DNA of 64,000 nucleotides from Escherichia coli (GTDB taxonomy: Bacteria > Pseudomonadota > Gammaproteobacteria > Enterobacterales > Enterobacteriaceae), in assembly GCF_050920415.1 (NCBI RefSeq), contig NZ_CP169309.1. One strand, given 5' to 3'. Below the pieces are notes generated by a model. It ran no database searches, was not told where the DNA came from, and was given only the letters and a program-made list of their open reading frames with translations. The translations under genes were made by a program, and so were the position numbers. Below, one piece after another: positions 16,140-16,326 of this stretch (positions are counted from its first letter, which is position 1; the number at the start of each line of letters is the position of its first letter).

Positions 16140-16326
16140 CGCCGTTGTAGGCATGATAAGACGCGTCAGCGTCGCATCAGGCATCGGAGCGCAACCGCCG
16201 GATGCGGCGTGAACGCCTTATCCGACCTACGGGCCGCGTCCTTGTTGTGATAAAGGCATCAAATCCCAGGCATGATTAGACGCGTCAGCGTCGCATCAGG
16301 CGATAAATGCCTGATGCGATACAGAG
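16140..16326. repeat. REP/BIME cluster (about three REP units)
   Basis: Imperfectly repeated palindromic units gcatgat(a/t)agacgcgtcagcgtcgcatcaggc and gccggatgcggcgtgaacgccttatccgacctacgggccgcg typical of E. coli REP elements, between convergent yqfA and ygfZ. Confidence 0.8.

Follow-up and report, generated by a model that had tools for sequence, protein, structure and literature searches.

A strain-variable BIME between the convergent trhA and ygfZ genes of Escherichia coli and its proposed role at the 3′ ends of both mRNAs

The gap between the convergent genes trhA and ygfZ of Escherichia coli is a BIME made of the REP palindromic units of this species, and among strains the locus falls into size classes of one, three and five full REPs. 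It was studied here in a 64,000-nucleotide stretch of contig NZ_CP169309.1 (RefSeq assembly GCF_050920415.1), hereafter the window, whose coordinates are used throughout. Taken jointly, the observations are very probably best explained by a BIME that gains and loses a 119-bp unit and that would provide 3′-end hairpins for the trhA and ygfZ mRNAs.

Arrays of this kind are already known, and both copy-number polymorphism and targeting by IS621 are documented for the class. Descriptions of REPs and BIMEs go back to the 1980s, reports of their copy-number polymorphism to 1997 and those of REP targeting by IS621 to 2003. Taken alone, the locus is of little weight, but it is a clean and well-sampled example, with two common alleles that lie one 119-bp unit apart (about 40% of 5,426 genomes carry one and most of the other 60% the other). 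Together with the IS621 insertions found in 2% of genomes, it provides a convenient natural test of the current proposal that, between convergent genes, REPs work as context-dependent terminators and stabilisers.

Layout of the locus

The convergent genes trhA and ygfZ are separated by 195 nt (16134-16328), and a RefSeq record that is 100% identical to the window here annotates both genes and leaves the gap without any feature. The product of trhA is a membrane homeostasis protein, and that of ygfZ is a folate-dependent Fe-S/tRNA-modification factor. The features of the locus are as follows.

15474-16133, plus strand: coding sequence of trhA, the current name of yqfA, with the stop codon TAA at 16131-16133 (ORF list; 100%-identical RefSeq record)
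16147-16182, minus strand: REP1, Z2-type, with its GTAG foot at 16147-16150 on the plus strand
16149-16267, no strand assigned: 119-bp unit, present or absent among strains (direct-repeat spacing; short genomes exactly 119 bp shorter)
16150-16227, minus strand: REP1+REP2 pair, matched over its whole length by Rfam RF02564 (naRNA4)
16183-16196, no strand assigned: head-to-head linker of REP1 and REP2, 14 nt, ATCGGAGCGCAACC (sequence; Rfam naRNA4 alignment; REP325 unit structure)
16197-16230, plus strand: REP2, Y-type, with its CTAC foot at 16227-16230
16231-16265, no strand assigned: tail-to-tail linker, 35 nt, found only in the long allele
16266-16301, minus strand: REP3, degenerate Z2-type in the orientation of REP1, a 97% direct repeat of it
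16309-16319, plus strand: partial fourth REP, 11 nt, GCCTGATGCGA, the first 11 nt of a Z-type head
16329-17309, minus strand: coding sequence of ygfZ, 326 aa, with the stop codon at 16329-16331 (ORF list; RefSeq annotation; tblastn)

The array is wholly extragenic, lying between the two stop codons, and its units alternate in orientation in the order Z2 (minus), Y (plus), Z2-like (minus) and partial Z (plus). The GTAG foot of REP1 is 13 nt from the trhA stop codon, and the partial fourth REP is 9 nt from that of ygfZ. A 7-nt loop separates this 11-nt fragment from the head of REP3 (16291-16301), with which it pairs at every position (inverted repeat I3). The edges of the 119-bp unit are ambiguous inside the 34-nt direct repeats at 16149-16182 and 16268-16301. 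A search with the REP tail motif found no further REP in the 64-kb window, and the K-12 feature table (NC_000913.3) lists coding genes only at this locus, with no explicit REP annotation.

A first-pass annotation, made by a model from the sequence alone, had placed a REP array at 16140-16326 between convergent yqfA and ygfZ. The gene arrangement is borne out by the ORF list and by RefSeq annotation, and the span correctly covers the array within 16134-16328. What had been counted as about three palindromes resolves into three full units and one 11-nt fragment, and the alternating orientation that had been described is recovered as minus, plus, minus, plus from consensus matches and repeat pairs.

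The mechanical ORF call for ygfZ is longer than the annotated gene (16329-17375, minus strand; 348 aa versus 326 aa) and begins at a TTG 22 codons upstream of the annotated start. The ATG start as annotated (MAFTPFPP...) is the one kept in all other species compared.

Identity of the REP units

The Z2 consensus used here was checked against the REP325 units. Alignment to the REP consensus families, which the first-pass annotation had named as the way to check its reading, yielded close similarity and not the lack of it: REP1 departs at one position from the Z2 consensus (minus strand) and REP2 at one position from the Y consensus, GCCGGATGCGGCGTGAACGCCTTATCCGGCCTAC (plus strand; consensus as quoted in PMC12306157), and for each unit none of 100 shuffles matched. 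REP3, located 119 nt downstream of REP1 and 97% identical to it, carries four differences from the Z2 consensus. A GTAG or CTAC tetranucleotide at the foot of the stem is a conserved feature of REPs (PMC3333891); it is present as GTAG in REP1 and as CTAC in REP2, and absent from REP3, which reads CCAG at 16266-16269. Queries that contained a REP returned a median of 25-37 matches per E. coli genome, and the 35-nt linker alone returned one.

Folded singly, the three full REPs are predicted to form hairpins of -13.5 to -18.4 kcal/mol (z -3.2 to -5.0) on both strands, with REP1 at -14.8 to -15.3 kcal/mol (z -4.5 to -5.0), REP2 at -15.3 to -18.4 kcal/mol and REP3 at -13.5 to -14.9 kcal/mol (z -3.3 to -3.9). 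The predicted hairpin between the REP3 head and the partial REP reaches -20.3 to -21.9 kcal/mol (z -6.3 to -7.2), and REP1 and REP2 can be folded together into one long hairpin of approximately -43 kcal/mol (z -3.4 to -4.7; 16143-16234, both strands). A two-base mismatch in the stem produces an internal loop in every predicted REP hairpin and corresponds to the unpaired columns 14-15 and 30-31 in the alignment of E. coli alleles.

On the minus strand, RF02564 (naRNA4) matches the REP1+REP2 pair at 69.8 bits, above its gathering score of 59.5, and the match covers model positions 1-77 of 77. Because the family was built from one Y+Z2 pair of K-12 REP325 (PMC4550694), this match serves as a test of Y+Z2 REP identity and not of function. 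The pair could also be read as a gene for a naRNA4-like small RNA that binds HU and compacts the nucleoid; the minus-strand score above the gathering threshold is compatible with such a gene, and Qian et al. (2015) reported this role for REP325 RNA (PMC4550694). However, the family models any Y+Z2 pair, so that a match establishes what the repeats are and not what they do; moreover, the array contains no promoter-like site, the pair is absent from most genomes, and no measurable contribution of REP325 or naRNA4 to compaction was found in a 2026 preprint. A small-RNA gene is thus highly improbable here, and the match is taken to mark a Y+Z2 pair.

At the gathering threshold, the Rfam scan of the whole window also returned a SIB RNA, the antitoxin of an ibs/sib pair (1863-2013, minus strand, 140.5 bits), 6S RNA/ssrS (2662-2845, minus strand, 138.1 bits) and one tRNA (59393-59463, plus strand).

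Small ORFs over the array

The ORF list contains several ORFs of 25-81 codons that overlap the array, and these might in principle encode real small proteins. Their translations have no Pfam match, and in the 20 RefSeq records inspected no gene is annotated between trhA and ygfZ, save an IS621 transposase in two of them. The reading frames are disrupted because the 119-bp indel is not a multiple of three and most genomes carry it; insertions of IS621 cut them as well. Their sequence, furthermore, is set by the REP consensus. We therefore give almost no credence to a coding function, which is at odds with the lack of annotation, the lack of any Pfam match and the breakage by the indel; on these same grounds the earlier judgement that the ORFs are artefacts is upheld. 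For annotation purposes, the ORF calls over the array are to be ignored.

Copy-number variation among strains

The locus was found in 5,425 of 5,426 complete E. coli genomes, and its alleles are as follows.

Long allele: three full REPs, gap of 195 nt; includes the window and K-12 MG1655
Short allele: one full REP and the partial copy, gap of 76 nt, exactly 119 bp shorter; for example O157:H7
Five-REP allele: Z-Y-Z-Y-Z and the partial copy, gap of 309 nt; one draft genome labelled E. coli

By coverage of a 317-nt query, the long allele is carried by 2,167 of the 5,426 genomes, and by presence of the single-copy linker by 2,201 of them (40.6%). Nearly all remaining genomes carry the short allele, a share that was judged from evenly spaced samples of the match ranking and from inspected records. 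In the five-REP draft genome the locus-specific linker is duplicated, indicating that the unit was amplified in place. Two linker copies were detected in one complete genome of the 5,426, with one copy in every other positive genome. The five-REP form was not evident among complete genomes, where the best matches are three-REP loci in overlapping pieces with spans of 315-316 nt; for this reason, the 469 matches with at least 80% coverage are not a count of five-REP loci. The comparison of repeat copy number across strains that the first-pass annotation had suggested thus uncovered a real polymorphism of one, three or, rarely, five full REPs. Polymorphism of this type is known for BIMEs (Bachellier et al., 1997, as cited in PMC1187871; PMC3333891).

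The short allele of strain 124 differs from the K-12 allele solely in lacking the 119 bp; that of strain AR_0372 shares the SNP states of the window-type long allele and looks like the window allele without the 119 bp. These two alleles point to at least two separate, precise 119-bp events, for which deletion is the simpler direction. A contig from Escherichia albertii that ends in the array gives a better alignment with the long form, one that takes in the first part of the head-to-head linker, and this partial sequence hints weakly that a multi-REP array may be ancestral. The contig (strain NBRC 107761, 2,895 nt) ends 61 nt past the trhA stop codon, inside the array, presumably at an assembly break caused by the REPs themselves.

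The 119-bp unit comprises one Z2 unit, one Y unit and both linkers, and its bounds are the 34-nt direct repeats of REP1 and REP3. Recombination or replication slippage between these repeats could accomplish the change; alternatively, it could proceed through cleavage and rejoining by TnpA(REP), as proposed in PMC3333891.

A diverged short allele, found in strains H3 and PK13, carries three matching changes, one in the tail of the REP (GATAAG>GAAAAG), one in its head (GCATC>GCTTC) and one in the partial inverted copy (GATGC>GAAGC), and both alternative hairpins are preserved. These matched changes could stem from selection or from templated correction within a quasi-palindrome.

IS621 at the foot of REP1

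The natural target of IS621, an element mobilised by a bridge-RNA recombinase, is the 11-nt sequence ATCAGGCCTAC with a CT core (PMC11208160). In K-12-type alleles the foot of REP1 is an exact copy of this target. REP1 of the window reads ATCATGCCTAC, one mismatch from ATCAGGCCTAC; REP3 reads ATCATGCCTGG, and neither window site is exact. Since published data indicate that IS621 tolerates mismatches poorly, REP1 of the window is probably a poor target, as judged from this single substitution.

Insertions at the locus are indeed found. REP1 is interrupted in strains Ec1117 and FORC_069, at the homologue of window position 16149/16150, by a member of the IS110 family that is annotated as IS621. 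The junctions read GT-AG-IS-AG-GCCTGAT, so that the element is flanked by the core dinucleotide, which on the other strand is the CT core of ATCAGGCCTAC. The same junction (GTAG/GCCTGAT) occurs in 111 of the 5,426 complete genomes (approximately 2%), among them 55989 and O103:H2 12009, and on both long and short array backgrounds.

A proposed role at the 3′ ends of both mRNAs

Position, structure and the literature together make it likely that the array acts as clusters of 3′-end hairpins serving both mRNAs. Transcribed from either side, its units would form stable hairpins at the 3′ ends of the trhA and ygfZ messages; these hairpins would block 3′-to-5′ exonucleases and would partly bar read-through into the opposing gene, probably with assistance from Rho. 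The first hairpin starts 13 nt past the trhA stop codon and 9 nt past that of ygfZ, in each case inside the 15-nt range reported for ribosome stalling. According to Liang et al. (2015), as quoted in PMC12306157, terminating ribosomes stall and translation is reduced where fewer than 16 nt separate a REP from a stop codon. REP325 limits read-through, partly via Rho, and protects upstream mRNA, and convergent gene pairs with REPs are more highly expressed; the same study describes a wide spread in REP effects and, across the genome, no lengthening of mRNA half-lives by terminal REPs (bioRxiv 10.64898/2026.03.23.713779). A literature search returned no transcript 3′-end, half-life or Rho data on the yqfA/ygfZ locus, and the supplements of PMC12306157 and bioRxiv 10.64898/2026.03.23.713779 contain no REP-level entry for this gene pair.

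A sequence scan found no sigma-70 promoter in the array, and a scan for a hairpin followed by a T-run found no such terminator on either strand within 16134-16328. The latter result bears on the possibility that the array is a classical bidirectional Rho-independent terminator. Strong hairpins between convergent genes would suit such a function, and distant genera do have hairpins flanked by A/T runs in this gap, for example AAAAGGGGCC...GGCCCCTT in Erwinia; in E. coli, however, the T-run is missing on both strands, and REPs in general lack a U tract (bioRxiv 10.64898/2026.03.23.713779). An intrinsic terminator is accordingly very unlikely, and the hairpins are better viewed as putative exonuclease blocks and partial barriers to read-through.

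To place these hairpins in a wider context, the gap was surveyed in 70 other Enterobacterales species with convergent trhA and ygfZ, where its median length is 72.5 nt. In raw energies, taken without a shuffle control, a hairpin of -13.6 kcal/mol or stronger is present in 70 of the 70 gaps and one of -15 kcal/mol or stronger in 66. REP-type palindromes belonging to the respective genus, in arrangements unlike that of E. coli, occupy the gap in Citrobacter, Salmonella, Enterobacter, Kluyvera and Pseudescherichia, and a single G+C-rich stem is found there in Cedecea, Erwinia, Pantoea and others. Because a hairpin occurs in every outgroup gap, a strong hairpin seems to be a conserved requirement at the locus, with REPs as one way to supply it.

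Several of these gaps have contents worth recording in their own right. In Buttiauxella (two loci), the gap 3′ of trhA holds a palindrome of approximately 120-145 nt that includes AATCCCCAGGAGCATAGACAACTATGTGACTGGGG and that resembles an ERIC/IRU element; if this identity is correct, different repeat families have colonised the gap in different genera. In Enterobacter and Huaxiibacter (five loci), CCCTCACCCC...CCCTCTCCCACAGGGAGAGGG motifs adjoin a REP-type palindrome and resemble Box C repeats. The gaps of Biostraticola tofi and Pectobacterium sp. are unusually long (189 and 190 nt, respectively); in the former, a motif of about 40 nt (GGCTGCATTCA..CAGCCGCC) is repeated several times in tandem, and the latter has a long inverted repeat (CAGTGATAATGGGTAGA / TCTATCCCATTATCACTG) with the appearance of a small MITE.

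Within E. coli, 11 distinct alleles were aligned. In the constant REP, two stem pairs show compensatory changes, with a covariation score of 0.106 versus 0.052 in shuffles, a value reached by 2 of 500 shuffles; this amounts to modest support. Covariation in the hairpin of the REP3 head and the partial REP was not significant (91 of 500 shuffles; a single event), and the hairpin itself is kept in all 11 alleles, with 95.9% of cells paired. Compensatory changes could also arise without selection, through templated correction in quasi-palindromes.

The main competing view regards the array as nothing but selfish or neutral repeat DNA, spread and amplified by the REP-associated transposase or by recombination, whose place between convergent genes would reflect only that insertions are harmless there. 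Much of the variation described above is compatible with it: the 119-bp unit is absent from most genomes, copy number varies between one, three and five, the stems of REP1 and REP3 in the window have acquired point changes, and other genera carry different repeat families in the same gap. It fits less well with the presence of at least one strong hairpin in 70 of 70 outgroup loci and in every E. coli allele seen, with the compensatory change of two stem pairs, and with the distance from the first hairpin to both stop codons, which is equal in the long and short forms. Overall, a purely selfish or neutral array is a possibility of some weight but doubtful, and 3′-end hairpins for both mRNAs remain the preferred account of the locus. 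Part of the array may nevertheless be of the selfish kind: most genomes lack REP1, REP2 and their linker, so these units are dispensable, and they may be selfish or neutral.

A further suggestion, which we regard as unlikely, is that the one-, three- and five-REP alleles are natural expression variants and not neutral. If true, array length would set 3′-end protection, read-through and stop-proximal ribosome stalling for trhA and ygfZ, and lineages would differ in the dosage of TrhA and YgfZ without any change in promoter or coding sequence.

Comparison with known systems

BIMEs are sorted by the types and spacing of their units. BIME-1 elements pair a single Y with a single Z1 unit across a long, IHF-binding linker, BIME-2 elements are tandem Y/Z2 arrays with a short head-to-head linker and a strain-variable number of units, and the remaining BIMEs are classed as atypical (PMC3333891, PMC1187871). 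The present array shares with BIME-1 elements, or RIPs, the inverted REP pair in an intergenic region. This class was excluded, as the units are Z2 and not Z1 (36-nt unit, inner stem GACGC/GCGTC) and the IHF consensus WATCAANNNNTTR does not occur within 16134-16328.

By its sequence features, the array instead resembles a BIME-2, with Y/Z2 alternation, a short S linker (14 nt) and a strain-variable number of units. Binding of DNA gyrase is a further feature of that class. Some details depart from the textbook form: the foot of REP3 reads CCAG where GTAG is conserved, the array closes with a mere fragment of a unit, and the 35-nt tail-to-tail linker is single-copy. In BIME-2 arrays the tail-to-tail flanking motif is of type s, l or r and is shared between BIMEs; at blastn sensitivity, the 35-nt linker has no match in E. 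coli genomes away from this locus. The first-pass annotation had called the array a typical BIME. That it is a BIME, with Y/Z2 units and a short linker, stands; "typical" is slightly generous in view of the REP3 foot, the fragment and the single-copy linker.

The closest parallel is REP325, the BIME-2 between yjdM and yjdN of K-12, which likewise alternates Y and Z2 units in a variable tandem unit and is captured by the same Rfam model. Identity to its units is 33/36 for REP1 (Z2) and 32/34 for REP2 (Y). The 100-bp unit of REP325 runs Y, 13-nt linker, Z2 and 17-nt linker; in minus-strand orientation, the unit described here runs Y, 14-nt linker, Z2 and 35-nt linker, for a total of 119 bp. The 14-nt head-to-head linker, comparable in length to the 13-nt S linker of REP325, aligns within the naRNA4 model with partial sequence similarity, and the greater unit length (119 versus 100 bp) is due to the tail-to-tail linker, which measures 35 nt here versus 17 nt in REP325. 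The two arrays also differ in extent, as REP325 comprises six units and the present array one and a half, and in their ends, since the last full unit here lacks GTAG and is followed by an 11-nt fragment, unlike in REP325. Their settings differ as well: REP325 lies inside an operon, whereas the present array separates convergent genes.

Finally, the inverted REP1+REP2 doublet, which could fold into one long hairpin, is reminiscent of the REPINs of Pseudomonas, REP doublets mobilised by RAYTs. In contrast to REPINs, there is no evidence here of the doublet moving as a unit. The unit that is gained or lost includes the locus-specific linker, which points to amplification or deletion in place.
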